A stretch of 61,560 bases of DNA, counting the filler, from Sluysia triapertura (lineage: Eukaryota), in assembly GCA_046118255.1 (NCBI GenBank). It is 4 parts of 4 records of this genome, joined end to end, with 100 filler letters (N's around TTAATTAATTAA, not from the genome) between each part and the next. Parts side by side here need not be neighbours in the genome. Positions count along the whole stretch, not along the records: positions 37,692 to 61,560 come from JBJNIA010200708.1; 3 more parts are not named here. One strand, written 5' to 3'. Below, one piece after another: positions 1,486 to 61,560 of this stretch; the stretch's first letter is position 1, and the number at the start of each line of letters is the position of its first letter. The notes under the pieces are model-generated. The model was not told the origin of the DNA, did no database searches, and saw only the letters and a list, made by a program, of their open reading frames with translations. Position numbers and translations under genes: made by a program.

Positions 1486-1716
1486 ATGTTTTATTGTTGA
1501 TAAATTATTTTGTTTAAATTAGTTATAACAATTTATAAAAATAGAATCGATGATTAATTTATGTATTTTTATCCCATTACTGCAATTGCCAAAACCGTTG
1601 AATTTACATTAATATCAGGTTAAAATAAAAACCATACATTTAAATTAAAATAATTGTTTCAGTTTTAAGGTAAAATCATTAAATTCATTTGAGTCCTCAA
1701 CAATTTATATTCCGCG

Positions 1717-2200: not shown

Positions 2201-2277
2201 ATTTGTATTTTCTAATGTATTTTCTGTTTTAATATAGAAGTTGAAACGAAGTTAAATTTTATAATTAATTTTCAAAC

Positions 2278-8689: not shown

Positions 8690-9338
8690 TGTAGCATTTC
8701 GCATTCAAAAGTTATTCACAAAAACGTTTTTTTCTTAATTATGTTAATTAAGATTTTTGATTAATTAATCTATTTTTAGACTTAATCTTATTTTATGTTT
8801 AACGGTTTTATTAAGGTCCTAAAGTTATTTAGTAGTTTGTAAGGCATTTAGGAGTCTCTAGATATTTTCACCTTTACCTCTCTGCTTCCTTTTCTACTTC
8901 TTCATGTTAATTATTGCTATACTAGATTTATGCTTAATATCAATAACAATGATTTTATTTCTCAATCATTTTAAAGATTTTAAATACTTTATAAGATTAA
9001 TAAAGGATTGCAAATGCTCATCGATGTTCTAAAATACTTAAAGGTTACTAAGGTCTTTAATGATCTAAAGGTTCTAAAGTTCAAAGGTACCTTAATCCTT
9101 TTAATGGTTTTTCAAGTTTATCTCAAGCGTCCACAAGGTCTCAAACCCTTATATAGGTCTTTGGGCCCTTAAGATATTATTTAGCCGTTAACATCATTAT
9201 AAATGTTTTCTTTTTCATGATTCTTATTTCAACAATGTTTATAATATTCAATTCATCACTTGTATCAGTTCTTCCTTGATTTTATAGTTCTATATGTTTC
9301 TTACTCATCTCTTGATCTACAGTTTGACAATTCCAACA
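8690..9338. mobile_element. Solo-LTR-like repeat, copy 2 (TGTAG...CCAACA, 649 bp)
   Basis: Aligns end to end with the reverse complement of 27751-28345, and over its 3' two thirds with copy 1. Confidence 0.7.
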
Positions 9339-10869: not shown

Positions 10870-10871
<2 letters not shown>

Positions 10872-10917
<46 letters not shown>

Positions 10918-10923
10918 CATCAT
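10872..10923. repeat. (ATT)n microsatellite abutting the 3' end of tRNA-like element copy 2
   Basis: Directly visible trinucleotide run. Confidence 0.95.
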
Positions 10924-10927
10924 TAAA

Positions 10928-11003
10928 TGAATTGATCGGGATTCGAACACGGGCCCTCTTACAGCCGTACAATTCGATGCTCTGACCACTGAACTATCGG
11001 CCC
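10928..11003 (-). pseudogene. tRNA-derived sequence, copy 2 (more degenerate)
   Basis: GGGCCGATAGTTCAGTGGTCAGAGCATCGAATTG...GTGTTCGAATCCCGATCAATTCA, homologous to 2494-2565. About 70 bp of 5' flank is also shared. Confidence 0.7.
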
Positions 11004-11554
11004 CGTCTAACAATTTTATTTTATTATAGTCAATTATACTATCATTATTCTAAATGACACCTTAGACCTCTACCTCAACAAATGTCATTATTTAAATTCG
11101 ATATTAAATTAATGTAATGAATCTGTATAACCACTAATACCGTTACACACATACATTAACTTCTCTAATTACTTCTAATTTAAATTTATTCATAAGTTAA
11201 TAATAATAATCCTTAACTTGCGACAGGATCCGGTTACAGTGTGCAGCTTATACCCTAATGTGAGCATATCTGTAACTATAAGTGACAATTCTTGACATTA
11301 AGTTTAACTTTTAATCTCTTATCCTTCAATTTACCTTCTGTACTTTAACAGGGAGTGCCAATGTTTTATGTTTATACATTTTTGAGAAGAGATCAATTCT
11401 AAAATGAGTCTTAATAATTCACAATTTTTAGGTTGGTGCTGTTTTTTTACAAACATGAAAAATGCATACTGATCAAGAATAAAAACCATGCAAAAAATTC
11501 CAGATAACAAAATGAATTTATTAAATCATTAGAAAAAACAAATATCTCCGTCTC

Positions 11555-11710
11555 TCAATCGGTGAGATATTATCTCCACAATCGATCTAACTTCCTTCCA
11601 CCGTTGTGGCAGTTTGAAAAAACTTGGTGATTTTTGGTCGAAAAATTCTTCAATCCACATTGTTATTGCTTCTTCGTTTTCAAATGTGAGACACCAGAAA
11701 GATGGTTCGA
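11555..11710 (-). mobile_element. mariner transposase C-terminal remnant
   Basis: Translation TFENEEAITMWIEEFFDQKSPSFFKLPQRWKEV resembles the mariner C-terminus (F...eei..w...ff..k...ff..gi.kLp.RW.kv). Confidence 0.7.
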
Positions 11711-12429
11711 CATGTTGATTAAAATAGAAAAGGAGTATACGCCGGAAATGTTTATTTTTTATCTACCTGAAAGTGAAAGTTAGTCTAAAATGATTTAAAT
11801 AGATAATTTATCTGAATAAATATAACTCAAATCAGTTAAAACAAGAAGTTCGTGTGTTTTCTTTGCAACAAATAAAACCGCACGAATTTATGCAGCAACC
11901 CAATGTAATCAAAATTCTAAATATAAATTAATTATTAAATTTATTATTAATTATTAATTTTATTATTACTACTTATGTTTAATTATTGATATTACGGTAG
12001 ATATTTATATGATATATGTTTTTTACATGCTTTTTTAAAACAAATGACATAATTTAAATATTTTCAACTTAGTTTTTCATCAGATTTTAATCACCATTTA
12101 TCGCTTCTGATAATTCTATTGATTATGCCACTTCTTCGAAACAAAGATTCTTTTCAAGCGGGAAGAAGTCGAGCTGTGAGGTACTTACAAATAAAAGATG
12201 CATTAGAAAATAGAATAGAAAAGGAATGCAAGGCAACCAAATGTATTGAATAATTAACTAAACCTTTCAATGCATGGATGATCGACTAATCATTTTTAAT
12301 GTGCTTGACAAAAGTATAGGGCATCCTCTCTACTTTTGTCGTATATACAAACACAATTCATATTATAACAAATTAACAATACTATTTAATAAATAAAACA
12401 CGAATAAACTATTACTTATTTATAGTTTC

Positions 12430-12529
12430 NNNNNNNNNNNNNNNNNNNNNNNNNNNNNNNNNNNNNNNNNNNNTTAATTAATTAANNNNNNNNNNNNNNN
12501 NNNNNNNNNNNNNNNNNNNNNNNNNNNNN
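12430..12529. other. Scaffold gap with artificial TTAATTAATTAA six-frame-stop linker (same at 25044-25143 and 37592-37691; plain N gap at 17746-17935)
   Basis: The same 100-nt N/TTAATTAATTAA/N structure occurs three times. Confidence 0.95.
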
Positions 12530-15500
12530 TTCGGCTATACTTTGTATTAAAAGGATTGGTAAATAATTGTGAATTTACGAATCCGAACAAAATTCGGTAA
12601 AAATATTTACTCTGACCTATTCAATTTAAATCTATGGAGGTTAAAAATAGGATTTCTTAGGTGATTAATTAATAAATGTTAAACAGTAATTTACGTAGAT
12701 CCTATTAAAAGTATCTATAACAATATATTGAGTTTACGATTCCGAATAAACTTCGGAGGACTTAAATCAACTACTGATTTTAAAATTTTATATTTATGTA
12801 ATTTGCGAGGATTCGATAAACGAATTTTTTATTAATAATTATTAAGTAAATAAATTACTTAAAGTACATTACGGAAAAAACACAATTAATTATACCGTAG
12901 TGTAATATGCGTAATATATAAAAATGTGGTATTTACTATATTAACTGAAAAGTTAAGGCGATAAGATTTTAAAAATGAGTTTACGAAAGAACCCTTAATT
13001 GGTTCAAAAAGAAAATTATAAAATTAAATTCAGTGTATTTTACAATAGTACTTAAAATGTACCAACTTTACTAAAAAAAACAAACAATCGAAAAAGTTTG
13101 CAAGGCTAACAAAACGATTTTTAAATATTTTTTAATTGTGTAAATTATGTGTAAATTTCATTCATCCTTGACAACTCTGGACAAACAAAACTAAATATTT
13201 AATTTTACATTAAAATGGGATAGTTTATAAAATAACATTGAAATGAAATAATTTATGAATTACAAAATTATTAAATAATATTTTAATAATTAAAAATTAC
13301 TTACATAAATTAACAAAATCCGATATTATTAACAAAATTAATCAATAAAATAATGATAATAGACACATCAAAATTAATCAATACACTATCATAATTGTAG
13401 AATAAATCGATAAAATAATAATAATAGACACGCAATACAATCACTATTAGATCATAGATCATAATATTATGCCCAATAAATTTTTCTACTTCATTTTTTA
13501 ATATTTGCTCCATATACTTAAATTCTATTTTATGACAAATTTCTTGTAATAGTTATTGTCATATAAATGATTTTTAGATCTATTTTGGTGATAATATGAC
13601 AAATTTTATTTTTATATTAATTTTCATAATTTATTATGGTGGTTTGTTTTGTTAGTGTTACTTTTAATAAATTCAAGGTTTTTTGTTTTTATTTGCTACA
13701 TTTACCTTCTCCATTCGCTAATTAAGTATATTTTTTTATTTCAGAAATTTTAAGATACTGAAATTTTTGAAATTTCTGTTCACTTACTATAAAATTATTC
13801 GACACTATGTTTATTATAATAATTATTAATAGAAAATAAGTTTTTATTAAATCTAAATATAAAATTCAGCTTGCAGTCCACTGTCCAGTGTCACTGGTTA
13901 TATATCAATTGTGTTTTTCCATTTATTCAAATTGATTTATTCATTCTAAAAATTAATCTGAACCTGGTTACTAGCAATCTCATAAAATCAGTAGATCACA
14001 AAGAGTTAGATTGACGGTATTTAATAGAACCAGCATTATATCTAGATTTTAATATTGATAAGTTGTTCACTCTGGTAAGCATAATATGCTCTTGTTGTAA
14101 CTCATTATCGACTTTATAACTTTATATCGTGTTCCAAGAGCAACTTTGATCGATATGAATGTAGATCGCTTCTCGCATTGCATTGGTAATAATTTAGTAT
14201 TGGTTTATTAACACGACATATTCAAAAACAGATCCACCACACCAACAAATTTTAATTAATGGTAATATAAAAACGTTAAACTGTATTTATGAAGATATTT
14301 TTACTTGCTTTATTAATTATGCTAGTTTGATCGTATCTGGCGTGTATGTAAAACAAAAACGTTCTACGAATCAACTCGACCTACGAGATAACTCGTAGTT
14401 GGCAGTGTAGGTGTTAAACAATCAATTATATTTAGGGTTTTTTTTATTATATTAACCTTCCAATTGAACATCCTATTATGACTACTGCGACATTCGTAAC
14501 ATTTGATTATAAATTTTCTATGAATGCATGTCGTGCATCTAATATTAATAGAATTATACATTTGAAATTATTAAAATAAATATTATGTATTACTTGTTAG
14601 TGATAAGAAAATAAAGCCTAATAGAGATTAAACATTAGTTAAAAATTGGGACGTTATATGGTTATAAAAAACAAAACTAACTAATCATTTTGTTTATTTA
14701 ACAAAGATATAGTGATAAAATTTATAAAATTACGAAATTTATAAAAACATATGAATATATAAAAATATAACTTTTGATTATAACTTGTTTCTTGTACAAT
14801 GGACCATCACAATCACAATTTCATTGGTTCAGGTTATCTAACCACAATATACATTAATCCTGATCAAACGCTGATAATTGTTTTGTGTCAATATTTCCTT
14901 GTTTTCTTCATTTTATTTAAAACTAGATTTGTGGTTTTGTAGCTTATTAATAATAATAATATTATTATTATTAATTTATCATTAGATTACACATTTTCCT
15001 TTATTGTAGAATTAAATCCAACACTTGTGACGCACGACACTATTGATTATATTATTATTAATTTTCATTTATTATTTTTATCGATTGATTTATTTACGTT
15101 CACATATATATTTCAATTTAATAATTTCCTTATTTGTTTATTTATTATATTTTGCATTATTCAGTTTACTTTAATAATTTTAATTGGTATTGTTATAATG
15201 ATTATTTTTTAATTTTATAAAATTATATTTCTTTAAATATTATTATTTATTAAAATTGTTCATTTGATACTTCTTAAACAATTCAATATTATTATTAATT
15301 AAATAATCATTCTATTGTTGGTTCCTATTTTTGTTTCTATGTATTTATCATGGATTATAATATTTCCCATAAACCACATGGAATCACACGATACAAGTTC
15401 CACCTTTGCATAAGTATATAAATAGTAATTGTTTAAGTGTGAGATTTGATATCCATGTTTGATAATATTTTTATACACAAAACTTAATGTACTATAATTT

Positions 15501-15677
15501 ATTCAATTTATACATTTTTTCTAAATATACTTGGCCATAAAAATCTAGCACCATTCATGTTTCGTAAAACAATATTGAAAAACACATCCAATAATATAAA
15601 AAAAATAAATTAAATTAAAAAATTTAAATAAATAATAATAAATTATACTTCGGTTTTATTAAATATATTTAATTTAG

Positions 15678-18600
15678 GACGGCGATCAATAGTTGGGAAA
15701 AATTTATTGCGTAAACGACGAGGTTCAGGTAACTTTCAACGTACAAATACAGTCAGTAAGGTAGGAAAAGGTTGGATATCGTTTTATTTATATAGTAAAA
15801 ATATATATTTTTATTTTTACTTTTCAAATATTGCTTTATCAAAAAAGAATATGGATTTCGAGAAACATTGATTTTTTGAATGATTTGTTTCCGTTAAGTG
15901 AAGTTTTTACTCGAATCAAAAGTTTTAATTTTTGATTAAAATTCAATGTCAATATTTGTAGAAAATTACATTCGACGCGTTTTAATGTTGCTTCAGTATC
16001 TTTTGGATAGGAAAACTGTATTGAACAATGTTAATAAATTTTCGTGTTTGGTGAAAAAATCAATAGTGCATCCAATGGTCTTATAGATCTTTGAGTCTTT
16101 TTATATTAAGAGTGGGTAGCCTAACGGACCTATGTAGAGTGCAAAGCGGGCAAAAAAAACTGCACATTTGCAAAAAATACTTTTCAAATGATATAAATAT
16201 TTTCTTCGCTCTTAAGTGACGGTCCGCGAAAAGGGTACTAATACCCGTCTCGCTGATAATGTTTTAAATTTATAAATTTTAAACTAGATAAGATGAAAAT
16301 TTATTTTAGAGCTATATTATTTTCGTGTTAAATAAATGTTATTTGTATAATTTAAGTATTCTGCATACAATAAATGCTCAAAAATTACAATTACAAAAAT
16401 TACCACATGGCTTATTTGTAAGGTCAAAGTTACCTGTACGAAGTTTGGCGAATTAATTTGACACGAGCCAAATACATTGTTAACGCTTCATGCGGTCTGT
16501 GATGCCGTAATTCCACTTAAGAGAACTTATACTTTATAATAGTACGAATTTCCGACTTTTCCATTTTCAACAAAATTAATTTAAAAAAAATGTTTTTATT
16601 ATTTTTTCTAGCTTATAATTTTTTTTTAAACAGGCCAGTTATGTAACTTTCCATAATTATATTTATCTTATACATATTAGTTTTCGTTGTAGTCATAATA
16701 AACATTCAAAATGCACAAATAGTTTTGAAAAAAGTATTTAAAAACATAAAAATGAATCTTAACAATGTACCAGTCTGAATTATCAGTAAATAGTTCCATA
16801 AACTTTCTAGTTAACATCTGGTATGTCATGGTAGTTAATTACATCTATTAAAATCTGACGTTTTTATTTAATTTTTGATATATACAAAGTTCCATTACTG
16901 TTATTGTTACTTTCTTAAATTGCATAATATTAGAATCATTTATTGATATGATAAATGTTTTACGAATTTTAATTTTAATCGATATTACTGAAAATTATAT
17001 GCATAATCTAGAAAAATGAACAGATTACTAAACAATCGTGCTTTGGTTGTGAATACTTTAGTTTATTTGATGGTCTTCCAATTGACCAAAATTATATTTC
17101 TTCTAATAAAACCAAATTGACATCTTAGTAATTAAATCGTTAAATTTCAGGCAAGTAAAGTAAAATAACCTTAAAAAATTAAAACAATAGTTGAATGCAA
17201 AGTTATAAATGTTTGTATTGCAAAATCTTAAATATTTACTGAATATAATAAAGATGCCGAAGCTAACATAATTACCTTTGAGGAGAAATTTTACAAAATA
17301 TACTTTTACAATAAGCTGTTCAAAGGCGTTAAGTTATTGGAAGAATACAATAACAAGTTTTTCCATTTTAAGAATTATGTATTTAGACGCTTTAAATTAC
17401 TTGTTTCGTGGCAAATATTGGCGCAGCATGAGGTAGTGCACAATTGTTTAATATCTAATTAGAGAACATGAGATAACAATAACAGTCACTCAATATAAAG
17501 TCAATGATAATGATGAAAATGCATTTAATAGTTAAAGTTTAGAAATGATTTAGTGATATTTTAATTTTATATCTTTATAAAGAAAATTTATATAAGATTC
17601 ATTATTATAGTAATTTAATAAATTTTCAGATAAAATTAAATACAGTTTTATATTGTATAAAATTCGTAGTAATTTTAATTCCAGATATTATATTGCTTAT
17701 ATATTTATATTTTCATCATTCCTAGCACTTAGTTGGTTCCATTCTNNNNNNNNNNNNNNNNNNNNNNNNNNNNNNNNNNNNNNNNNNNNNNNNNNNNNNN
17801 NNNNNNNNNNNNNNNNNNNNNNNNNNNNNNNNNNNNNNNNNNNNNNNNNNNNNNNNNNNNNNNNNNNNNNNNNNNNNNNNNNNNNNNNNNNNNNNNNNNN
17901 NNNNNNNNNNNNNNNNNNNNNNNNNNNNNNNNNNNCTGTTCGTGGTAATAGATTAGGAAGTGTAAGATATAGAAAAGAGAGTAATCAATCACAAGTGAGT
18001 TACACAGTAGATGTTGGTGGCTATAATGATGATGCTACACCTACGCAGAAAGACCAACAGCAAACACATCAACAAGTTCCAGGAACTACATCAACTCCAT
18101 CCGATTCGCAAACCGCTGGTGGAACATCTTCTGTACGAGAACAAGACAATTGTGTTAATTATATGCCATGGTTATCTGTTGTTATACAATTTGCTAACAA
18201 GTTTGTTGATTTTTGATTTAATAAATACTAAAGTTTAGCGTTAAATGTGTAAATAGTTCCTTGTAAATTATAATAGCATTCTAAAGATGATGAAATTGAA
18301 AGCTCAAAGTAACCAATTCTGAAAAGTTATTGAATGTGTGTTATTTTAAAAAATCTACTAATTTGTTTTTCATGATGGTCTTATTGATTATGTTTATTCA
18401 GAACAAATTTTGTGTGCGTACACGATGGTTATTGTCATCCTGATTGTTACGAACGGCAGCAGCGTCAATGTCGTCGATTAATCGATGCAGTTCGAACGGT
18501 TTATAGTGTGGATTTATCAAGATTCAAACAAAAGCCCGGTTCAGGTGATACTTCGAGCAATTACCATGATTCACTCAAATCAGGTTCACATTAAATTATT

Positions 18601-21600
18601 TGTAATTGTTTGAAAAGTTGTTTATAATTTTAAATATGTTGCTCATAATAATAAACTATTTTTGAAAAAATAAAAACACCTAGAAATTTTTATTCATTTA
18701 CAATTTATTTATTATTTAAAATATAATCCTTCGTGTTCTAAACGGTCTTGTCAGTGATAATGTAATCTTTGCTTTTAGAAGCGAAAATTTATTCGCAGTC
18801 ATTTATGTTATCGCCAAAATTGAAGGTTCTGTTCTTTAAAAAATGAACCATTGACCGGAACAAGTAATAATCCAATTGAGCAAGATCTTTATTATAAGCT
18901 GAACTTTGAATTGACCCGAAAAAATCATCTATTATTTTTTTCCTTTTTTTACTACGCGAGATAAAATTTTATTTACGTTGACTAATTCATTATAACGATC
19001 AATCATATTAACTTCTCTTTATTTAATTATAATAAATGTTAGAAATGAAAACCTGATAATCATGAATCAATTCGAAGTAAACTTTACCTTCAAAGTTCGA
19101 TCAAATACATCATGCTATTTTTCACGATCGGTTGACCATTTCTAACCGTCGCTAAAAATACTCATTTTTAAACATTCTTATTACTACTGGAGTGTACCAC
19201 CGAATGCATGATGATAAAGATGTGTTATTTACTTTTATATAACAAATTTAATGTTGAAAAGTCTCAGATTCAAATTTAATTAATTTGTGATTCAAGTAGT
19301 ATAAATAATGGCTGAATGTAAAGAATTTGTAACGAAATATGAAACCGAAGAAAAGCGTGGTGTAATTCAAATTTCGGAAGTTTATAAGTATAAGACATTT
19401 AGTAATAGTTACATTATTTTAAAAATATGATTGTCGGAACATTGCATGCATACAAGAAGATACTTCCGAGTTCAAAACTATATAAATGATACTTGATCGA
19501 TCGATCTGAATTACGAATAGAAAACTTTTATTTTATGGCATTTATAATCTAGCGTTTAATACACAATTAATATAAATAATAAAAATAAATCAGTTGGATC
19601 ATTTTTTCAATGAATTTAAATATAATAGTTCTGTGCGCTGTAGAGTTGTATTATTATAATACAACTTGTAAAATTAGTAAAATTGAAGATTTGTAAAAGT
19701 AGTCGCTCAGTTAATTGATCTAGTTCACGGTTTTTGATCTTAAATTCGTAACCGTCTCTATGACAATTAAAATGTTGACAAATATATTTATCCTGAAGGT
19801 CTGGAGCAGTTAACTCAAACAAAAAATAGAGGTGCTTGATTAAATTTATTTTGTATATCAAGTGATCAATGACCAAATGTTCTTTACATTTTCCAAAATC
19901 AAAAATAATTTTATTACAATGATGAAAACTAAAAGTGACAGATTCTATCAGTGTAACTTAAAGATCCGAAATCTTGACTTTTGTGTCACTGGACAATTTA
20001 TAATTAAAATTAAGATAGGAATTTTCCTTGTTATTATTAATTGAAATAAAAATTTTATAAATAATAAAAAATAAAACGTCAAAAATTTATATAGCATATA
20101 ACTATCAAAATGAAATTGAAGAATAGAAAAATTAACATACTTATGATTATTATATAGTCTATTTGTTTCTTTTAGACGTCTAAAATCTTCATTTTCAAAT
20201 TATACATATTGTGAAGCGGTATCAATCCGCTTCACTTTTACATATTCTGGATCATTGACATTGAAAGTTTTGTAATTCCTCAAAAACCTGACAACCATCT
20301 TGGTTTTATCAATTTTTTGCCTGATTTTAATTTTTCTTTTTCTTAGTTAATTACTTTGCTGATCATCTCTTGATTTGGCCATTTGTTTATTTTTTACTAC
20401 TATCTTTTTTCACATCAATTCAATTACCTCAATCTTTTTTCTCTACAAGATTTTTTAATTTTTGTTAATATTTTGGCTATTAATTCTATTAATTCTATAC
20501 TGTGTAATTCTATATTGGCAGCCATTTGTAAAATTTTTATTTTAAATTTGCTATAAACACATTCATTATCCTTTTATTCGATGAAACGTGAATTGGCACT
20601 AAGTTTGCCAATTCGCATTTGATTGGACTCAAATTTCAACATGTGCATAAACACATAAAAGCCTAGATTAATGGCCATTTTGTTTTGCTTTATTATTATA
20701 ATAATAATAATTATTATTATTATTATTAAAATAAGTATTATTTTCTGTGTAATACAAGACAAAAAAATCTCGTTCTACGTATATTTTATACAAATTTTTT
20801 TTCTGATTTAACATTATTTATAAGAATTTCGACTTATTTGATTTTCTTTTGGTACGGATTTTGTATTTTTCGAATCTTGATGTTGACGCTTTCTTTGATT
20901 CATTTCATTGATTTTATTTGAAAATCATTCTTTTGTTTTTCTGCAATTTATAAGTGATGTTCCATGTTTTTTTGTTTTTTTTTATTTCGATTGAAGTAAT
21001 TTTTCTTTATGGCTCTAGATATTTATTCACAATTGTGTAAAAACTGCAAAACAATTAATATTTATCACTACCACATAGTCACCATTAGCTGAAATTTTAT
21101 GGTTCTTTTGTACGCAATAGAAACATAATAAGTATAAGAAACTGTTCAAAATATTTACATAAATTGTTACTTTGTCTTTACTTCTTCATTTTCTTCACTA
21201 CTTTTGATAAGTTCATTAAATTTATGTTCTTTTTTTAAAGGAAATTGTTCAACACTATGCATCTTTTCCTGTGGCTTTTTAATAATTTCAATGAATGTGT
21301 TTAATTATACAAATTGTATGGCATCCTTTGAATTTGTATAAATTTTAAATTATTCTATCAAGATAATTCGTGACGAAACGAAAAAAATCATGATAAGTTA
21401 CATTTATACATATTTGAAATATGTTTAAAATTTAAACAAATTTATGCATGTAAACAAATATCTGATCATCCTTTTTTGAGTATTTACAAATGAAATGTAA
21501 AGATTGATGATTATCCAAATCTACCTTTTGAATAATAAGAGTATTGAGTTTTTTTTATTTTCATGTTTTACAATGATTGCCTTACTTCCTTTCTTTAACT

Positions 21601-23705: not shown

Positions 23706-25906
23706 GTTATTATTATTATTATTAAATAATTTTAAAATTTATTGGTTACGTAAGGAACTGTTACCATCAGTTTGTCTCCTTTTTATTCTATGTTAATTTA
23801 TATTGGCCAATATTCAAATTGAAGCCTGAATATAACTATCTATTTAGTTTTGTCTTTTTATTAATAATATATTACTATTTTGCTTTTACAACTTTTCATT
23901 AACAATCTTACCAGATGGTATGACCTTATTAAATTATTGTATTGATGCTGAAATCAAAACTAAATTCTTTACTTTAGTTAAACTGTTTTTCCTTATTTTA
24001 TTAATTGGAATAAAAGTATTTTCATTTATTGAAGTTCTTTCATGATTAATAATAACTGCTTGATTCTAAAAGAAAGATTACTTCAGTTTTAAACAATGGT
24101 ACACTTTACAATATAAAAGGACGTAATGAAAAATTTATTATTTGTCATAAATTCTATTGAGTTTGTTTAATTAATATTTCAACATTTATTAATTTCGAAA
24201 GCCTTAATCCTAAGTTAAACTCCAATACTGTAAAGAGAATATTACAATCATGCTTTAAATTTATATCTATAAATCTATAGAACCCACTATATAAGTAAAC
24301 AATAATTTATTCAAAAATATATTCTATCATTTAGACATTTTTCAAGTCATAAATGATTCGGCACTATTTATAACTTGAACACACAAGATCGAATCTCAAA
24401 CCAAGCAGATCTGAAAGCTTGTGAGACTTATAAAACTGACGCTTACTGCTGAGAATATATATTCATTATTTCTTATGAATCGCTTCATTCAAATGAAAGT
24501 ATTGTTTTCAAATTATTCTCAACATTTTTTGGAACACAAATTTCTTCACTTTGAAAAGTCATTAACGACGATATATAAAATGTAACAAGATCATTTTATT
24601 TTACTCTAAGAGCAGTACTTCATCAAGGTTACAACCAAGCGAATAGAAATATATCCTTCTCATTAGATCTTATTCGCATATTTGAGCACGATAACTTCAG
24701 TGATTCTAGCAAAGAATTCTTTAATGAATGAAAAGTGAATGAAATTTCTTTCTAATGACAGCTCTCTCATAATTTTTTAGAGATTATATATTTGTTGGAG
24801 TTTTAGATTATCTTTATTCATGTGGGTTAAATAAATAATTAAAATTAATTTATATAATATTACATTGAAAATGGCAATGCTAAATAATAAATCAACCTCA
24901 AAAAAGGGTCCGGCTCTAATAAACTTTATGAGTCAATTACTATTGTAGTGAGGGCTTTTGAATAGGTTAAAATATTATCGTTGTCGCCTCTATTCTTGAC
25001 GTTGAAGGTACAAATATAAGTAACTGTCTTTTTAGAACGAATTNNNNNNNNNNNNNNNNNNNNNNNNNNNNNNNNNNNNNNNNNNNNTTAATTAATTAAN
25101 NNNNNNNNNNNNNNNNNNNNNNNNNNNNNNNNNNNNNNNNNNNATAACGATTGTCATTTTTCATAAACCATGTTTAATTAGGTTAGATTTTTATTAAACA
25201 ACACTAACACTGATATTTTGTAGAAAAATAGTAAATAATTCAGCAAAACTGACAACTTATCTCCAACTGTTGCAAATCCAACATCTTCAGAAACGACGTC
25301 TAACGGTATGAGACATGACCAATCCAACATTCTTAACCCGACTAGGTTAAATAGTAAAGTTTAAATTTATGCATTTCAATAATTTTGTAAAATCAATAAT
25401 ATTCAAACTAGATTTGCTTTAAAATTACATTAATTTATGTGCTTCTGCATCTGTAATTATTAATTCCTATATAAAATTAAATATATGATAACCCAAAATA
25501 GACAATATTAGCAATATAAAATTTATTTATTTATTATACAAATTTTTATACAAAGTGTGATTGTGTTGAATTACTAATAAACACTGAAACATTTAGCAAT
25601 TTTTTGTAAGCTTATTTCAGTTCTTCTTTGTAGATATTATTTTATTATTTTCGAAATGGGGGAAGCACGGTTTCTAGAAGTTGTGTGATTATAATACATA
25701 ATCTTACTTACATATTACTTAGATGAGTAATTTCGTGTTGATTAATAAATTAATTTAATTAATTAATTAAGTAAAATAATAATTTAATCCGCTATCTTCT
25801 CGTTAATTTAAATCGCAAGGCTTCCATTTTTATTACATCTTTCTTTCATTGCATAACTTCACTTCATTCCAAAATTATATTATAGAACACATTTTAATTA
25901 AGTTAA

Positions 25907-27750: not shown

Positions 27751-28345
27751 TGATAGGATTACCCAACTGTTGGACAAGAAACGAGTAAAAAAATATGGAA
27801 TTAAAAAATTCATGAAGAATTGATGCAAAATGAGGAAAAGAACATTATAGACAATGTAGAACAAGAATAATGAAATAAAAACATCTACAATCATTTTGAG
27901 AATTGATGAATACCTTGGAATTCCAAGGACCTTTGCGAGATGTTGAGACTCTTGATGAAGCTTGAGATTGATGGGTTTAGAAAATGTTTTGAAGCGTTAA
28001 AGTATCTTGGAATCTGTGAACCTCCAGACAATTTGAGACCTATGAGAAATCTAGTAAAGTATTTGAAAACTTTAATATATTTTAGAAATAAAATCATTAT
28101 TCATATTAAAGATAAATATAATCCATTAATAATTAATATTAAGAAATATAAAAGTGAATAATTGTGTGTAAGTATCTAGAATTCTTTCAGTGCCTTATAA
28201 AGTACTAAACAAATTTAGAACCTTAATAAAATCTTTAACCATAAAGTACGACTAAATCGAAACTAGACTAATTAATTAAAATCTTAATCAACTTAATTAA
28301 GAAAAAGTAAGGTTTATTAATAGCGTTTGAATGCGGAATGCTATT
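27751..28345. mobile_element. Solo-LTR-like repeat, copy 3 (inverted relative to copies 1 and 2)
   Basis: Reverse-complement alignment to 8690-9338, including blocks GAATACCTTGGA, GAAGCTTGAGAT, CCTTAATAAAA and TTTGAATGCG.AATGCTA. Confidence 0.7.
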
Positions 28346-28565: not shown

Positions 28566-31124
28566 ATTTTATATACACAAATAAAGTCTATTAAAAGAAT
28601 TATAAGATATGAAATTTAAATTAATGTATATACAGTCTATCAGGAAAAATTAATAGATTTACATTTTAGTATAAGATCTGAAATTTAAAATTACACGAAA
28701 GTATATCTGAAATTTATAGAATTACACATATTTAAATTTACAATTTAGTATTACACAAAATTATAATTTGAAATCTAAAATATATCTGAAATTTAAATTT
28801 CTTATGTATATATAAAATCGGAATTATAAATTCTATTACGATTATTAAATCATTTTGTATATAAACAAAAACAAAACGAGCAAACAAGGCAATAAAATTA
28901 AAAACTTTTGGTGGATTTAAGAAATATTTGAAATCTCAATTTATTTTCACGTGAACAAAGAAGAAAACGAACAATATACTAAGTCAATCGTGACAATTTT
29001 TGGTGGAACATTTAATATTCGTGAGTGTTATATTATTTTGTTGTCCTTTATATATGTGTATTAATACTAATATTGTAAAATTTTCTTTTGCGTACTTTAT
29101 TAATTAAAAAATTTGATTTATTTGTATTAATAAATAATTGTTAGTTCATTCGACTTCGTTTTGAGAGTGAGGCCCTAGAAGAGTAAATAAGAATTATAAG
29201 GAATTACATTAAAAATATCAAGTGATAAATAGTTTTAAATTAGTTTATAAACTATCTATTCATTACTAACAAAACTATTATTACTAAATTATTAAGCACT
29301 CCTATCCTGAATAACGAGGACGAGTATACCGACTCATACCTCCAGTAGAGTAAAGTGATATAATAAATTAAGGTTCTTAAGAATAATCTTTAGAGAGATT
29401 TGAATCGTTAACATAGAATAAGAATTTTTATAATACAGAATAATATCCAGACCTATTTGAACTTAGAAAAAAGATAAAAGTTGAATTTCAATTACCGAAA
29501 CAGTCGAGAATAAGTTAACCTTTAAAATATTAAATTAAATAACAAAATATTTATTACAGTATCTATAATTGTAGTTGGTTCTTTGATTCTCTGTATAGCA
29601 AAATGAAGTTGCTTAATAATTTTAGCCTGTCAACAGTCAACGATTTATACTATATTTTAATTTAGTTAAATTGAAGTACTGTCGACTGGTGACAGTTTGT
29701 GCCACTAAAATGGTCATAATAAAGTATTTGTAATAGTAATTAATTGATTAAAAATAATAATAATCAGTATAATAAAATAGTTAATTACAATAAAATAGTA
29801 ATAATAATAAAATGTTTACAAAGAAATTAATAAAATAAAGATTAAAATGTCCACAAATTCTTCCTGATATTTTACACGAACTTTCTTTTATTTAAAAAAT
29901 TACAAAATATTTCTTCACATACAATTAAATGAATTTAAATAAGATATAATTTGTTGATTTAAAATACCAAAAATAATTAAAAGGTGTAAATACTTAAGTG
30001 TGAGAGAATTTAGAACTTGAAATGTTGAGTCAATTTTAAGATATATGTTTGCTAATTTAAGGTGTAAATTGTGATTCTAATGTTGTGAGATAAAGATTAA
30101 AAATGTTTTATATGAATTTTTGAATATACTTTGATGTTTGAATGTAAGTAAAGTTTGGATGTTGTAAGATTGTGACTTGAAAATGTATTGAAAATAAAAT
30201 AGTTTTTTATGGATCTGAAGGAAATAAAATACGGCAAAAATTTTTGATACATTCTAAAAAGGTAGTTGTATAAAGTTAACAAATGTGATTATGATTGTAT
30301 TGTTATGGAATGTGCGATATGTTGAATTAAATTAGAAATGTCTTAACTTGACATTTTAAGTTTATGTTTGATGATTTTCGATGTTGAATAAGATTTTGAT
30401 GTTATGGAATTTTATATTTAGAATGTTTGTAAGTATTAACAATTATGAAATATTCAGAAGAGTGGTTTTGTTGTATGTGAATGAAATAAAATTTATAAGT
30501 ATTGGGTTGACAACTACAACTCCAATAGGCATGTTAAATTTCGCTGCCAGATCTCTTTCAGTATAAAAGCCTTTCATTTAAGGGTTGAAAAATATGAAGG
30601 AAATTTTAACAAAATTTAATATTAAAACAAAATGTTCGAGATTATTTGTATATTCTTGATGTATTAATTCCATTTTTCAAAAAAGTGGTGCTCGTTATGT
30701 AGAGGTCTTCCTGCAATATAATTATTAGTGTTAGATTTTAATATCTATTGCAAGTATTCAGATTCTGCACTCAACGATCAATTTACGCTTTTCAAACATA
30801 TCATTTAATTATTAATATTTTAAGAGATATTCAGAATTTTTGCAATAATTTTAGTTTATTATTACTTATAATGTATTATTAAAAAGTTTTTTATTTTCAT
30901 TTTTAATAATAGTAGTAGATATACTACTTATTAATAATATCATCATTATTGATATTATTGTCGTCATTATCATTATCGACACAATCAAAATCTTTGCTCA
31001 TTTACAACGTAAACCAATGAATTTCAAAGTATTACCGATATTACATTTATTTTATTGATGAGTATTAATTGAAGAATCAAATTAATTGATGAGTATTAAC
31101 TGAAAAATAATTTATGCGATATTA

Positions 31125-31290: not shown

Positions 31291-33890
31291 AATTAAGAAT
31301 GATTACCATGATTCTGTTCTGAAATGAAATATATACTAAAGAATTTTATATATGTTTTAATGATTTTATATATAAGTATTATGAATATTTTTATTTTATT
31401 TTTTTAAAAATAATGAGTAATAGAGAACTTTATTTTATCATAAGGTATAATGAACATTTCTATAATTTTATGTTTTTAAAAGAAAGAAATGATAACTTTA
31501 TAAATTCATAAGGCTTTTAAATTTTATATTAAAATATAATGAAAATTTATATTACCTTATATGACAACATGTATTTTGAATGACAGCAAGGATTCTAATA
31601 ATTTCAAACAAATTCAAGGCATTTTTAAAGATTTACTAATAATAATTTCAATAAAATAAAGATAATGTATTTTGAAACATATTTTAAATAATTATTTTTA
31701 TCCTACTGTTCAGAATGTCACGTTTAAATGTTATAAATTGTTCATATTTTTTTGTTTTGTGTTTTTATATGTTCATTGTCTTCTGATTTTACTCAAAAGT
31801 TTTGTTTTTAAGTCGTATAAGATTAATGATTATTTCAATTAGGGCCTAAGTTCATAATTGTTTATGTATAATAATAAGTTATTGACTTTGTTAATTTGTG
31901 CAATCATAAATGTTAAATTAATAATTACGTTGTTTTGTAAACGCCGTAAGCGCCATCATGACTTGTCACTTATTAAATATAATTTTAATCATACATCAAA
32001 ATTAAAGATACAAAATGATATTTTAAATTATCGTCACACTCGAACTCACTTGTGCATTATGTCTAAAACATATTAGTGTTTTATTATGCTATTTTTGTTG
32101 AGTCAGTTGTGGCGCCTTTTAAAGAATCTTAGAATTTGTAAAGTTTTGATAAGACACCTTAAGCATCAAAACGAAGTTTCAATCAAACGCCTTCAGCGTT
32201 TTAGAATAGCTAATATATTTAATCTAGTTACTGATTAAAAAATCCAAAAAATATCTATTTTAGGAAAGAAAAACATATTTGAAGGGAGTATTTGTAATTT
32301 ACAATATTGAATGTCAAGACCTTAAATAGCATATTTAGTATTGTGACAATGACTACTTTCCGAATATTAACCAACCATTACCAGTTCTGATTCTCAATCA
32401 ATACCTATCTCATTATGCCAAGTTGAAAATATCGTGCCAAATGTTATGTGATAGTATAAGAAATCAAATCTTGATTTTTAATTAATACATCTCCGTAGAA
32501 ACGTCTGTAGTTTGCATTAACAAAGCATAACTTGCAGTATAAGTTAATATTACCTTCGACCTGGACAAAATAAAATTACAACTAAAGGATGAAAACCCAA
32601 AATGAAACAAGTTTCTAAGAAGCCAACTCTACCTAGATCTACTCACATATCAAATCTTCTATTGATAACTATGACAACTGTATAGCTACCTGAACTCTTA
32701 TTGGGTAAAAATGTGGACCTTAGGGACAAAAACTTGAAACTTCACCAAAATGACAAGTTTCCTTGAACCTGAGATCCGGACAATGAGCATTTATTTCCGA
32801 AAAGCTTATAACAATGTATTAAACTTTCACTTGAATCCTCATTTAATATTTACAAAGATCAGAGCCTTCAATATTCTGAATAGGATAGTTAGAATAATAT
32901 ATAATACCCATCCTCTCAATTTTGTGTGAAAACATGTAAGCATGTTACAACCATTACTTCCTACAACTACTTATCCTTTCTCTTTTCTCCGTCCTCTCGG
33001 TAACAATCTAAATCTGGACAGAACCTACTACTGCATGCCTAGTTGTATTCTATTTGATAAAATAAAAGTTTAAAGTACTTAAATTCAATTGATGGTGAAA
33101 ATATGGGATTTTTATTTTCACATATAAACCCAATAATACAATCACGAAACTTACAGTAATAGCAAATTGATTTAAATTTATTTTGTAAGTTATCATAGTC
33201 AAAAGATTTTTTATTTAGACTGGTTGGTGGAGTTTACATTTTTTACACATCTGTTTACACATTTTCCAGAATTATGCATGAGACTTAATAATTTGGGATG
33301 CACCAAGGTAAATAAATTGTACGAAAATTCATAATCATGAAGAGTTACGATTACTAACTAATATGTTATTAAAATTATCAAAGTGTGTATGTATTCATAA
33401 TTTTAGTTTTGAAATTAAATATCAGTATGAAAATATAGTGAAACTGCAGAATGTACTTTACTATTCGTCAATAATAAAAAATAAACAAGTTTTTACTTTA
33501 ATATTATATTATTAATAAAAAACAGATACTAAAAAGAAAAAAAATAACGAAAATATAAGTTTTTCACACTGAAAAAATTCATGAGATTATTTCTTCTATA
33601 ATATTATATTCACGAGGTCTCAAAACAATTATAAAGAAAAAAACTAAAAATGAGGTCATAATTTATCAAAAATATGAAGATCAATAGTAACAATTAAGAA
33701 AGAAATAGACTCCAAAGCCGAAGCCGTTAATTTCACAATGAGATTCCACTTCCTTCTCGATGTCATAAAAAGAGTGACATCATTTCATCATTTATATAAC
33801 AGAACCATAACAAATATCGTGATCAATTACTTAAAGTTCATAAATAAAATATTTTTATGTTATTTTGAATTAAAATTTAAAAACACTAAC

Positions 33891-37591: not shown

Positions 37592-37691
37592 NNNNNNNNN
37601 NNNNNNNNNNNNNNNNNNNNNNNNNNNNNNNNNNNTTAATTAATTAANNNNNNNNNNNNNNNNNNNNNNNNNNNNNNNNNNNNNNNNNNNN

Positions 37692-57166: not shown

Positions 57167-57961
57167 TTAGCATTAAATTATATTCCTATTAAAACATGAT
57201 TATTATGATTATGATTATAGTTTCTATTATCGTTACAATGTCACTTTATTATTCCACAAACAATAGACTTAAATATTCGCACACCTTCACATCATCATAC
57301 CAAAAGAGCATTATCCTCTGTAATTCTTAACAATTAAACGCCCGCATATTTATTTTACTGCCACACGTAAACACATGGCAATCTTTAACAAATTTTAAAA
57401 ACTTAACTTCTTAGAGAAAAATCAGTATAAATTTATGACGTATTCACTTATTAAAGATATAGGTATAAAAAAGGCAAAAATTCATGGACAGTAATACAGT
57501 AATACAGTCATGCATTAATGCAAGGCCGGACGGTTAGATGTTAATAAATAATGCATCATTAATATTACCATTTTAATTTTATTGTTGCTTTTGTTATTCG
57601 AATTTTCTATTTTGAATCCTATAAACTCAACAGTTAATTCATTTCATAACAATTGCAAAGTAAATCTTTTCATATCTTTAATAATGTATTGTTAAGACAC
57701 AAACAATGCAGAGTAATATTTCGGGTTTAGTTTCATATCGAGTTTTGAAATTGGAAAACGATAAATCAGAGTCATTTTTGAACGCATTTAGATTCAACAT
57801 CTAAATGTTTCATACAATGCTCAATATGGTATGAATAATTTTCAGAATTTGAAAATATTATTTTTAGTGACGCAAACATGAATGTAGATAAGTATCGGTA
57901 AAATCTACCGATACAAATTATATAATTATATAATATAAATCTTTTCATAACACAACAAAAA

Positions 57962-57980
57962 TGGTGTCAGGAGTGGGATT
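57962..57980 (+). promoter_or_regulatory. LTR-retrotransposon primer-binding site complementary to the tRNA-Leu 3' end
   Basis: TGGTGTCAGGAGTGGGATT is the reverse complement of AATCCCACTCCTGACA-CCA (mature tRNA-Leu end including the non-encoded CCA). It lies 4 nt after an LTR-like ...TAACACAACA end. Confidence 0.85.
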
Positions 57981-57993
57981 ATTTACTTTCCGA

Positions 57994-58844
57994 TTACATG
58001 TTATATTGAAAAATATTATGGTACGAATTGTAAACACGATTCTCATTATTTTCTTTACTTTCCAATGTGTCATATTTCTGTGGAATTGTTTGGTAATCAT
58101 CTGCACAGAGTAGAGATGTGTTACCTAAGACATAATCATTTACATCGATCATAATATTAACTGAAACTGGAAATGATATTTGTATATTTTGAGATAAAAT
58201 GTAATCGTCATTACTATTTACAATAGATTCCGAATTCACTTATTCATCATAAATTTTAAAGTCTTTGGATAAATTAACACAGATATTGTTCAAGTCTGTA
58301 TTGAGGTCAATTAAATTATTTAGTATTATATCTAAGCCAGATAATTTTAGCGCATCTGAATTAACCCAAGTATTTAATAAAGGTGATCTTATATCCAGTT
58401 TGAAATGTAAATCTTTAATCGATTTTGATAATCCGCATAATGTTTCAAACATTTCAATATCTCTTAGAAGTGAATTCTCAGAATAAATACGATTCAAAAA
58501 TTTCGTATCAAGTTTTAGTGATTTAATACAGCAATTTAATGTTGATTCGTTAATAGCGTGCCGAATCCAAGTTCTACTGCAACCAACATTTGTAATAGGA
58601 TTAGATTATTATCTTCATGCATGTATTCCAAGACATCTTTGGAAATTATGCCTTTTATAACTGTCTAAAATTCATAATCAAAAACCAGCTTGGGTCTATT
58701 AATTTTTCGAAGTTGTTGATGAAGAAATACTGCTTCTATGGCAGAGCATAAATTGAATGTATGAATATAATCGGAGATTTCATGAAGATCTCGATCTTCT
58801 TTATACGTTAATATGGCTTGCATAGTTAACTCCTTTTCAATCAT
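57994..58844 (-). pseudogene. Intronless disrupted copy of a PLEKHM1-type RUN-domain gene (N-terminal part)
   Basis: LCSAIEAVFLH...EF*TVIKGII (TAG at 58665-67 replaces the conserved Trp), frameshift near 58600, then NVGCSRTWIRHAINE...YSENSLLRD...LHFKLDIRSPLLNTW...LKLSGL. Another in-frame TAA at 58240-42. Confidence 0.75.
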
Positions 58845-59070
58845 TTAATTTAACCATTAAATTATCTTTTCTGATGAAATAAAATTGTAAAATTTTATTC
58901 TTTATTAGATTAATGTTATTTTTAGTTACATGAATTTTTTAAACAAATTATACTTTTTTGCATTGGCTGTCAAATATTTTTTAGTAACTGTCTAATTTTA
59001 TACTTTCTCCGATTGGTTGTCAATTAATATTAACTGGGATTAATCAAACTGGGACAGACCAATCGTCTTG

Positions 59071-59132
59071 ATTGGTTGTTCAACCAGAGTGATAAAAATA
59101 ATGCAGAGATTCACTCTGGTTAGACAACCAGT
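59071..59132. other. Conserved 22-bp-stem hairpin / CCAAT-box palindrome, copy A
   Basis: Arms 59071-59092 and 59111-59132, 18-nt loop. The first 19 nt are identical to 61207-61225. Confidence 0.75.
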
Positions 59133-59183
59133 AATAACGCTAATAGAAAATTGATTTGAAAGTGTCTAGTAGTTAATTTCGGA

Positions 59184-59371
59184 TGTAGTTGAACTTCAAT
59201 TGTTATGAAATGAAGAATAAAATATTTTAGATGAATTTTTTAATGTAAATTGATGGTTTTGAATATCATTGTGGTTTGAATGTTGAGATTGTGGATTTAA
59301 ATTAATTTTAGTGGATGTAAAGGAGATAAAATATGATATAAAATTCTCAAAGTGATAGGTTGACCACCACA
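59184..59371. mobile_element. Short LTR-like segment (TGTAGTTG...CACCACA)
   Basis: TG/CA termini and G/T skew. The terminal 17-mer TAGGTTGACCACCACAA recurs at 60033-60049, with a variant at ~30505-30519. Confidence 0.45.
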
Positions 59372-59374
59372 AGA

Positions 59375-59951
59375 TCATTTAAGCTTTTGTTCATATTACA
59401 CGCAGGACTTGATGATGAATGTAAACTATTCAAAATTGACTCACTACTACTTCTATGAAATCGGTCTGATGTAATCGTTGAATAATTATTTTGATTAAGT
59501 CGATAAATATATATAAATATATATTTAGATTTGATATTTAGATTCAGAAGGCACACTTTGCAATCCATTAGCAATAATAGTACAATTTTTATGTACTGGA
59601 TGATATATTACTACATCTGACTTTGATGACAAAAGATACTGCTGTTTATTATGAAATTCAATAACATCTAAGACAGTAGGAAACTTATATTTCCGGTCAA
59701 TGTAATACAGCAACTGATTTTCATTTTTTTTCTGCGTCAATTTTTACTATTGAATGTATAAAAAGTTTATTCCATTTACTTATCACTATAAATTGTTTAT
59801 TTTTATCACTTGAGAAGCGAAGTAAAAATTCACCACTGGACACATTACGCTCTTCTTCATGTTTACGTTCAACTTCACCATGATACCACTTTATATTTAT
59901 CAATAAATCAATTTGCTTTTTAATTTCAGAATCAATGTCTAATATTTTCAT
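59375..59951 (-). pseudogene. Intronless, frameshifted SH2-domain gene fragment (BCAR3/SH2D3- or FES/FER-type SH2)
   Basis: WYHGEVER...SSGEFLLRFSSDKNKQFIVISKWN, frameshift in an A8 run at ~59724-31, then YKFPTVLDVIEFHNKQQYLLSSKSDVVIYHPV. A later frame reads RFHRSSSESIL. Confidence 0.7.
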
Positions 59952-60151
59952 CTAAGAATGAATATGTCTCAATCATTAAAATTTATTTCGGTATCGTTTT
60001 ATGTATAGTGTTGAATTAAAATTCTAAAATTTTAGGTTGACCACCACAAAATACAATAGAAAATGACGAGAATAAAACTAATTATTACCACAAACAAAAT
60101 TGTTATTTGTCTAATGTTTGGAATGAGAGAATTTCATATGTAGGTTAAGAA

Positions 60152-60360
60152 TGTAATGAGATTACAAATATTACATTGTTAAAATTATTAAAATTCTTGA
60201 AACTAATATTTTCTCGACTTAAATTAAATAAAGGTATTACTTTTAAAATTAATATAAAATTTATTGAAATATTAATACCTTTATTTAATTTAAGTCGAGA
60301 AAATATTAGTTTCAAGAATTTTAATAATTTTAACAATGTAATATTTATAACCTTGTTACG
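60152..60360. repeat. 209-bp near-perfect palindrome occupying the LTR position upstream of a PBS
   Basis: Perfect 74-bp arms 60166-60239 and 60273-60346 with a 33-nt spacer. Pairing extends, with G-T and A-C mismatches, out to TGTAA...TTACG. Confidence 0.95.
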
Positions 60361-60364
60361 AAAT

Positions 60365-60383
60365 TGGTGTCAGGAGTGGAATC
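60365..60383 (+). promoter_or_regulatory. Second tRNA-Leu primer-binding site
   Basis: TGGTGTCAGGAGTGGAATC; the first 15 nt are identical to 57962-57976. It lies 4 nt after the palindrome end. Confidence 0.8.
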
Positions 60384-60413
60384 TATGTTAAAACCGAGTC
60401 TTATTACATGCTG

Positions 60414-61041
60414 TTAAGCAGCGGCAAGAACTTTCTTACATAGTTGAGAGTAATCGTAAACTATACTAACAACTATTGGTGGCAAATTTAAATGTTGATT
60501 TAAATCACTAAGGTTAATACGACTCATTATATCTCTTGTTATTGAAATATTCAGTATCTTTTGAGTCATCTCAATTCTATCTTCACTACCTTCAGTTAAT
60601 TCCGTATAAGTTCGCATCATGACTTTATAAAAGGCATCATCTTTTAAATTTGCGGTTAATATTTTAACTTCCAAAGTCGAAAGACATTGAGAAAATATCC
60701 CAATAGAATTGTTAATGCTTAATCCAGCTTTGTTGCAGACACTGTTGATGAGAGTTCTCGGATTACAAACTTCGCGTGTAATTAATTTGAATATACTTTC
60801 GATGTTGTCCAGACGAGTGATGATCAGCTCTAGATTTTGACGAGTAAATTCTAAATTAGTATTATTGTTGATTTGATTTCTCGAATTATAATAAGATTCT
60901 GTTTTAGTTTCAGAATTTCTTTCGTTTTTGATCTCTAATAAAATCTTTACTTTCTATACCATGCAGAACACTGATTACATCATGGATATCTAAAATGAAC
61001 ATTCTAAGTCCACTTTCACTATGTTTAGCTAAATCGTTCAT
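60414..61041 (-). pseudogene. Disrupted intronless ORF: coiled coil plus possible DUF4806/BEN-like domain
   Basis: A ~180-codon stop-free frame 60414-~60954 (LELIITRLDNIESIFK...LKDDAFYKVMMRTYTELTEG...QKILNISITRDIMSRINLS). The nearest ATG (61041) is in another frame. The domain assignment is weak. Confidence 0.4.
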
Positions 61042-61206
61042 GTTTATATATTCCTTTATTAAATTCATCTATGTTCCATTGAGAAAATTTTGAGCCCAAA
61101 TTGTTTTAAGTTTTCACCTTAATTTTTTCTATTATATAAAAACACTAAATTTATTTTTATGAATCAATTAACTACTCTCTCAATACTGATTAGTTGTGCG
61201 TTCGTT

Positions 61207-61269
61207 ATTGGTTGTTCAACCAGAGAAGAAAACAAAAATAGCAATGCTAATTCTAGTTGGACAACCAAT
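61207..61269. other. Conserved hairpin / CCAAT-box palindrome, copy B
   Basis: Arms 61207-61225 and 61251-61269 (19 bp, one mismatch), 25-nt loop. Confidence 0.75.
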
Positions 61270-61560
61270 CAAAGTACTGCAAAGTAATTATAAAATTATT
61301 AAATTAAATGTGTCAAATCAATTAACAAAATTGGCAGTGGTTGTAATAAGTAGTGTTGATACTACTTTGTTTAATTAACTGAAGATTGCTGGCAGCTACT
61401 AAATAATGTGGTGGCACATTGACAATAATCAAAATGGCGATTTCGACAATAAAATGATTAAAATATTAATAATAAAAATCTTTTGTTAAAGAAAAAATAA
61501 ACATAAAGAAAAAAAATGATTTTAATGGATCTAAAAGAATTAAAGAATAAAAGGTTTGGA

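Follow-up and report, generated by a model that had tools for sequence, protein, structure and literature searches.

The closest described counterparts of the locus analysed here are the long terminal repeats (LTRs) of animal Gypsy/Metaviridae elements such as Mag, rGmr1 and Sushi. In the available part of PMC3601003, these LTRs share with our locus a TG-start motif, short imperfect terminal repeats and an AATAAA. The same text gives TGTNANR as the 5' integrase motif of an animal Gypsy clade, and describes LTRs of Mag clades as ~170-210 bp long with a primer-binding site (PBS) a few bases past their end, as is the case here. Palindromes within an LTR are also described for the Sireviruses of maize, where they are capable of forming hairpins and have been proposed to feed small-RNA production (accessible text of PMC4728375). 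Furthermore, the part of PMC8604942 available to us reports that the arms of inverted repeats of 7-16 bp are homogenised in yeast by template switching.

Here, we describe a 209-bp fold-back in a stretch of 61,560 nucleotides from Sluysia triapertura, which we call the window. The host DNA belongs to an AT-rich animal genome, and the GC content of the window is 20-29% per 2 kb. The inverted repeat of a control LTR family, introduced below, measures 8 bp, whereas 88 of the 104 half-length bases pair in the fold-back. The fold-back is real, unusual, located at a true LTR-PBS junction, and known from one copy.

Results

Geometry and folding of the inverted repeat

The fold-back, a candidate Gypsy-type LTR, occupies positions 60152..60360 on the plus strand (209 bp, 16% GC), and its paired positions have a constant sum of 120512. 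Pairing from 60152/60360 inwards covers 88 bp with five mismatches, all of which are transitions, while transversions appear just outside and the pairing ends. The left arm consists of an outer imperfect part with 9 of 14 pairs matching (60152..60165, +) and a perfect part of 74 bp (60166..60239, +). A loop or spacer of 33 nt (60240..60272) leads to the perfect right arm, also of 74 bp (60273..60346, -), followed by the outer part of the right arm with its LTR-type 3' end (60347..60360, +). Re-derivation of the coordinates thus reproduced the perfect 74-bp arms of the original prediction, including their extension to 88 bp with transition-only mismatches. The claim that the entire segment folds was also borne out. 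The calculated fold of the hairpin was -104.7 kcal/mol (z -24), which was equalled by 0 of 200 shuffles, and that of its minus strand was -107.4 kcal/mol. With a score of 154-155, against a shuffle maximum of 32, it was the top fold-back in the window.

The five mismatches were all located in the outer 14 of the 88 pairs (P = 5e-5), and the core had none. Moreover, each of these outer 14 pairs was either a match or a transition (P = 6e-5, for a boundary picked post hoc). The clustering of the mismatches and the non-random rim imply a layered fold-back, in which a core free of mismatches is enclosed by a rim that is imperfect and older. Three mismatches fell within the outermost nine pairs, each of them a G-U on the plus strand. 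The core had a GC content of 14%, versus 25-26% in neighbouring LTR-like DNA.

An AATAAA of presumed function lies 8 nt 5' of the loop (60227..60232, +), with its mirror copy at 60280-60285 (-). One reading frame was open through the hairpin on each strand (60149-60388, +; 60148-60369, -). Such frames occurred in 0 of 3000 shuffled palindromes, yet in 68 of 4000 control palindromes made from window DNA. We set aside a coding palindrome, in which an open frame crosses the hairpin on both strands, as the frame had neither a start codon nor a Pfam match. A search against Rfam gave three miRNA-family matches, all far below the gathering score, which we took as generic hairpins.

Older AT-rich fold-backs with decayed arms and no PBS behind them were observed at 43190-43514, where the case is clear (108 identities and 24 mismatches between the arms at 43195-43510), and more weakly at 31342-31547 and 55001-55121. 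The decayed arms of these other fold-backs indicate that arm repair is not general in this window.

The right end and its primer-binding site

A PBS complementary to the 3' end of a tRNA (PBS2; 60365..60382, +) starts 4 nt after position 60360. A second one (PBS1; 57962..57979, +) is located 4 nt after a CA and is identical to PBS2 at 17 of 18 positions. These two sites were the sole occurrences of the 18-mer in the window at ≤4 mismatches. We take the corresponding tRNA to be tRNA-Leu. None of the tRNA-like units in the window matched the PBS, including the unit called tRNA-Leu by ARAGORN. Two such units, at 2467-2632 and 10902-11080 (ARAGORN: tRNA-??? and tRNA-Leu, respectively), were 73% alike together with their flanks.

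We scanned metagenome sequences for the junction TTACR-N1-5-PBS and obtained 27 loci. The full 18-mer PBS was present in 14 of them, while several others look like chance matches in genes. No tRNA genes were called among the 27 loci, and behind one locus lies an open frame that resembles gag, with a zinc-knuckle match that is weak (E 0.008). Fold-backs were absent from all 27 control junctions, two of which had <300 nt of upstream sequence for scoring; their arm scores were at most 25, versus 154-155 at our locus. One metagenome contig carries an LTR-PBS-type junction (L006 / L019) with a ~500-aa open frame in antisense behind it; this junction may be a chance match within a gene.

Divergent flanks were used to set the LTR starts in two control families. 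One family (L004, L010 and L020) had LTRs of 192-193 bp with a terminal repeat of 8 bp, and the other (L008 and L016) had LTRs of 186-187 bp. As the control LTRs measure 186-193 bp, 209 bp is an expected size for this PBS class. The last five letters of the L008 LTR are the same as those at the right end of the hairpin, with a final letter that departs from the usual LTR end in both. The chance of a stray fold-back ending 0-5 nt before either PBS was ~8e-4. The controls therefore support the right end of the hairpin as a true LTR-PBS junction. Likewise, the position of PBS2 at 60365 and the junctions of the 27 metagenome loci agree with the original prediction that a PBS follows 4 nt beyond the fold-back, and the 8-bp control repeat and the 0 of 27 control fold-backs agree with its statement that such a structure is exceptional for an LTR. 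Its designation as a putative LTR is well founded at the right end, through the junction, the PBS and the length controls, and partly supported at the left end.

The left end and proposed assignment to the Gypsy type

The left end at 60152 fits TGTNANR. This fit is not decisive, because any stem that is paired with the last bases of an LTR will resemble the motif. Immediately to the left, a purine-rich 12-mer (9 of 12; 60140..60151, +) is a weak candidate for a polypurine tract; 15 of the 227 TG sites in 57980-61560 were equally purine-rich. We infer that 60152 is the true start of the LTR.

No second LTR copy was found as a direct repeat within the window, which ends 1.2 kb past PBS2. Similarly, none of the 54 open frames of ≥38 aa in 55200-61560 matched gag-pol or other retroelement Pfam families. 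Gag-pol could be located beyond the window, as is the far end of the element, where a target-site duplication of 4-5 bp would be expected. Hence, the term Gypsy-type is based here on the ends, the PBS and the length.

The stretch before PBS1 (57690..57957, +) was also structured (fold z about -4.3) and is a candidate for an older LTR. Its comparison with the 209-bp hairpin gave no significant score, as 17 of 300 and 92 of 300 shuffles did as well. The presence of this structured stretch raised the odds of the reading favoured below, though it is not homologous to the hairpin.

Antisense reading frames and small hairpins

Behind each PBS we found a minus-strand open reading frame (ORF) instead of gag. 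RUN and SH2 were the only Pfam families above the cut-off among the 54 frames in 55200-61560. The RUN-domain piece (58243..58605, -) is of the PLEKHM1 type (Pfam RUN E 6e-9; PLEKHM1 E 2e-10), and a likely upstream RUN piece at 58668-58844 (-) was recognised by eye, without a Pfam match. A search for the RUN piece within longer proteins found nothing. The SH2 piece (59724..59951, -) is of the Fes/Fps type (Pfam SH2 E 8e-6; Fes E 2.9e-4), with a likely second piece in another frame at 59528-59743 (-), again seen by eye and without a Pfam match. The third ORF, of 179 aa (60414..60953, -), continues in a further open piece in another frame (60913-61068). Pfam and sequence homologue searches with the 179-aa ORF were empty, and an atlas match to DUF4806 (score 0.89) serves as a lead only to a DUF4806/BEN-like identity. 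Its single-sequence structure model had a mean pLDDT of 38 and was set aside. The RUN, SH2 and DUF4806-like ORFs are each broken into pieces in different frames.

The RUN ORF is preceded by a small hairpin (59063..59141) that carries CCAAT-like and GGTTGNNCAACC motifs, has an Rfam match under the gathering score and appears promoter-like. A homologous small hairpin (61193..61283) precedes the DUF4806-like ORF, and the upstream stretches of these two ORFs are homologous as well (0 of 300 shuffles reached the score). Region 57962-61560 can be described as two related units, each running from a PBS through an antisense single-domain ORF to a homologous small hairpin, with the SH2 ORF in between. 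The second PBS and the antisense ORFs go beyond the original prediction. Of the 11 matches to the palindromic motif GGTTGNNCAACC with ≤2 mismatches, 6 (at 59074, 59118, 59358, 60035, 61210 and 61255) are gathered in the final 3.6 kb of the window (P = 1e-5, for a motif picked after seeing the sequence). One may speculate that GGTTGNNCAACC is a binding site, perhaps for the BEN-like cargo. The element is presumably non-autonomous and moved by a tRNA-primed Gypsy partner.

Copy number and age

We used the depth of contigs from one public sequencing run, perhaps the source of the assembly itself; depth of this kind is not a copy number. Long unique pieces had a depth of 12-16, whereas the RUN and SH2 regions reached 1600-3200 and 830-1960, respectively. 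Depth was 80-332 before PBS1 and 1888-3215 after it, 202 in a bin of which 68% is hairpin, and 517-1420 after PBS2. At face value, the hairpin thus amounts to ≤ ~21 single-copy equivalents, and it may be unique in the genome. Its low depth does not single out the hairpin LTR, because depth before PBS1 is low as well. For the RUN-, SH2- and DUF4806-like cargo, summed contig depths of 500-3200 suggest tens to hundreds of copies. Short repeats with a depth of 4,000-21,000 were observed at 59195-59301 together with 30075-30182, at 55265-55770 and at 56530-56782.

No copies of the hairpin arm were found elsewhere within the window, and comparison of the arm with seven other window stretches, including the three other fold-backs, gave no score beyond those of shuffles. 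No viral contig matched a 20-mer taken from the arm.

Among the 40 variants listed, out of 800, 12 were located at 60439-60975; these were private to the window copy, as almost all of the depth there disagreed with the letter in the window. The probability of a flawless 74-bp core was 0.04 at a private decay of 2.1% and 0.23 at 1%. The core is probably younger than its element, or else was smoothed by the assembler. The recent origin originally proposed for the core is in line with the former value (P = 0.04).

Other features of the window

Several Pfam-type matches were found in the window, of the MEF2-type, Spc25, bicarbonate-transporter and malonyl-CoA decarboxylase families, which identify the host as an animal. 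A divergent SRF-TF domain of the MEF2 type (Pfam E 2.5e-20) forms the start of a 568-aa open frame (4507-6213, +) that continues uninterrupted beyond the domain; this frame is possibly a retrocopy. Near it lies a repeat pair at 6176-6568 and 8908-9301 (81% alike), with more copies near 27789-28343. A Spc25-like ORF of 231 aa in a single frame (790-1485, +) had a Pfam E of 1e-4. The gaps at 12430-12529, 25044-25143 and 37592-37691 all have the fixed pattern of 44 N, 12 bases and 44 N, which we took as a trace of the scaffolding method.

Discussion

Origin of the fold-back

The reading we favour, with a probability of roughly 0.48, is that of a Gypsy-type LTR whose ends stayed ordinary and whose interior acquired its mirror symmetry through a recent template switch. 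The starting point would have been an ancestral LTR of a decayed Gypsy-type element, with ordinary imperfect integrase ends. The polymerase would then have folded back and copied one half of the LTR onto the other, and would have rejoined its template where the former terminal inverted repeat lay, so that the 14 outer bases escaped conversion. Since the arms homogenised in yeast are 7-16 bp, the 74 bp considered here are an extrapolation. Several observations speak against this reading. The fold-back is a single copy, neither a second LTR nor gag-pol is present within the window, and 0 of the 27 controls fold back. In addition, the break between perfect and imperfect pairing at a TA, the G-U rim and the 14% GC core would suit a miniature inverted-repeat transposable element (MITE).

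Such a MITE is the foremost competing explanation, although we consider it unlikely. Tc1/mariner fold-back MITEs are AT-rich, have long terminal inverted repeats (TIRs) separated by a short spacer, and target TA. Our locus resembles them in its arms of 74-75 bp, its 33-nt spacer and its TA flanks, and differs from them in its low depth and its LTR-PBS junction. The candidate MITE would span 60165..60347 (183 bp, 14% GC), with terminal repeats of 75 bp and a TA on either side (60163-60164 and 60348-60349). It would be a young, low-copy, TA-targeting element that inserted within the loop of a small hairpin structure; this structure would form the U5 terminus of an ordinary but longer LTR running left of 60152. 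This explanation yields the perfect core and the imperfect rim in one known step (P = 5e-5 for the clustering), and accommodates both the low GC content of the core and the bias of the rim towards G-U on the plus strand. Once the core is removed, the rim folds at -6.5 on the plus strand and only -2.0 on the minus strand, and several control LTRs end in stems of -4 to -7 kcal/mol. An AATAAA at 60071 in the left flank, followed by a GT-rich stretch, resembles R-U5, and the window does contain other long AT-rich fold-backs. However, a TA is an automatic direct repeat in any palindrome, and our scan found many such pseudo-target-site duplications (pseudo-TSDs). The supposed TIR opens with a mismatched base pair, the window contains no other copy of the arm, and ≤ ~21 single-copy equivalents contrast with the summed 4,000-21,000 of short repeats nearby. 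None of the 15 joints listed, out of 68, skips the core. The length of 209 bp and the purine run before 60152 would become coincidences, and the left flank doubles as the upstream region of the SH2 ORF, which leaves little space for a U3. Of the MITE at the LTR position that was originally proposed, the common high-copy form is disfavoured by the low depth, while a rare MITE may account for the locus. Mutator/Foldback elements were rejected, as there was no TSD of 8-10 bp and the longest direct repeats at the boundaries were 2-6 bp and internal to the palindrome. DIRS-type elements encode a tyrosine recombinase, carry repeats at opposite ends of the element and have no PBS. They were rejected as well, since the arms are adjacent, a PBS follows, and no recombinase match was found.

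Two further explanations invoke an accident in the data or in replication. In a short-read assembly, a single collapsed path might have supplied both arms, or the assembler might have taken in a chimeric read, which we regard as improbable. The fold-back lies in a multi-copy region of a scaffold with N gaps, none of the 8 contig pieces listed, out of 6617, crosses the hairpin, and the 74-bp repeat is longer than the 31-letter words of the contigs, so that the arms cannot be phased. A fold-back chimera would yield neither an unrelated loop of 33 nt nor transition-only outer arms, and would not match LTR termini and a PBS at a class-typical length; an assembly error accounts for the perfection of the core but not for its design. 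The other explanation is a snap-back of strong-stop DNA during reverse transcription. In a one-off event of this kind, minus-strand strong-stop DNA would have folded so that R-U5 was copied in reverse, and the product would have integrated with this copy in place of U3. This would place the fold-back exactly at the end of the LTR before the PBS. Snap-back would extend the mirror image as far as the terminal base and let the arms decay evenly, yet all five mismatches are confined to the outer 14 pairs, and the internal region appears older than the core. The aberrant strand-transfer product that had been suggested, in the form of a pure strong-stop snap-back, thus fits poorly with 5 differences in the outer 14 bp and 0 in the core, and we consider it highly improbable.

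Within the favoured template-switch reading, a one-off or few-copy event is put forward tentatively, whereas a propagated lineage appears less likely. Equally speculative, and judged unlikely to hold in full, is the wider proposal of a palindromic-LTR lineage that is maintained by arm-to-arm copying, acts as a two-way poly(A) and double-stranded RNA source, and carries captured antisense RUN, SH2 and BEN-like genes. As part of this lineage proposal, the captured domains could act as decoys of host signalling or trafficking proteins.

Possible implications of a palindromic LTR

Read-through RNA that covers the two arms would pair into a double strand of 74 bp, a predicted substrate of Dicer and ADAR. 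Hairpin RNA and siRNA, as named in the original prediction, are likewise predicted products. Because the AATAAA is mirrored, with each copy 8 nt short of the loop, sense and antisense transcripts are both predicted to end within the loop. Such a predicted two-way use of poly(A) sites would suit an element with antisense cargo, and the stop of the antisense cargo ORF is located ~130 nt before the minus-strand AATAAA. AATAAA is common in DNA this rich in AT, and the two-way terminator stays hypothetical.

A true whole-LTR palindrome would blur the divide between LTRs and TIRs, and would present near-identical ends to the integrase. It would also place a double-stranded RNA of 74 bp within the control region of the element itself, and permit a direct test of a self-carried silencing trigger or a two-way terminator. 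If the fold-back is instead a one-off event or a MITE within an LTR, it is an ordinary accident in a repeat-rich genome. Of broader significance may be the surrounding cargo of multi-copy antisense ORFs (RUN, SH2 and BEN-like).

Comparison with known systems

Our searches of titles and the openings of abstracts, in which subscription literature and Repbase reports are thinly covered, gave no match for a whole-LTR palindrome, nor for a retrotransposon with antisense cargo of this kind. The palindromes of Sireviruses, according to the available text of PMC4728375, occupy a palindrome-rich sub-region of the LTR in a plant Copia lineage for which siRNA data exist, whereas here the entire LTR folds back, as seen from sequence alone.

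The giant Gypsy elements named Burro in planarians are likewise LTR elements with captured host-like regulatory domains, some of them in separate ORFs (accessible part of PMC6431247). Unlike the antisense cargo found here, the domains listed there (AIR1, Smc, MATH, BIR, ankyrin and BCL2) are mostly part of the sense polyprotein. In that same accessible part, RUN, BEN and antisense each occurred 0 times as whole words, and the portions of PMC8532177 and PMC11410931 available to us contained nothing further on structure. Because the hairpin element has no reverse transcriptase in the window, no link to Burro can be drawn.

Tandem arrays of TRIM elements and the Helenus elements are non-autonomous and tRNA-primed, and their LTR-internal-LTR-internal layout with shared repeats would fit two PBSs 2.4 kb apart (available text of PMC6934838 and PMC10886601). 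They differ, as far as described in these texts, from the kilobase-sized coding interior, the non-homologous pre-PBS stretches and the LTR without tRNA-like sequence observed here. TRIM was rejected because the 2.4 kb between the PBSs contains coding remnants and the pre-PBS stretches are unlike each other, and Helenus because ARAGORN calls no tRNA-like sequence in the LTR, where the Rfam matches are confined to miRNA hairpins below threshold.

The Retand elements of plants are also comparable, as they are Gypsy elements with antisense accessory ORFs, some of them non-autonomous, as is proposed here (accessible text of PMC11963269). The ORFs of Retand are situated between pol and the 3' LTR and are mostly of the TRP28 type in that text, whereas the antisense ORFs of our element lie right after the PBS and are RUN-, SH2- and DUF4806-like.
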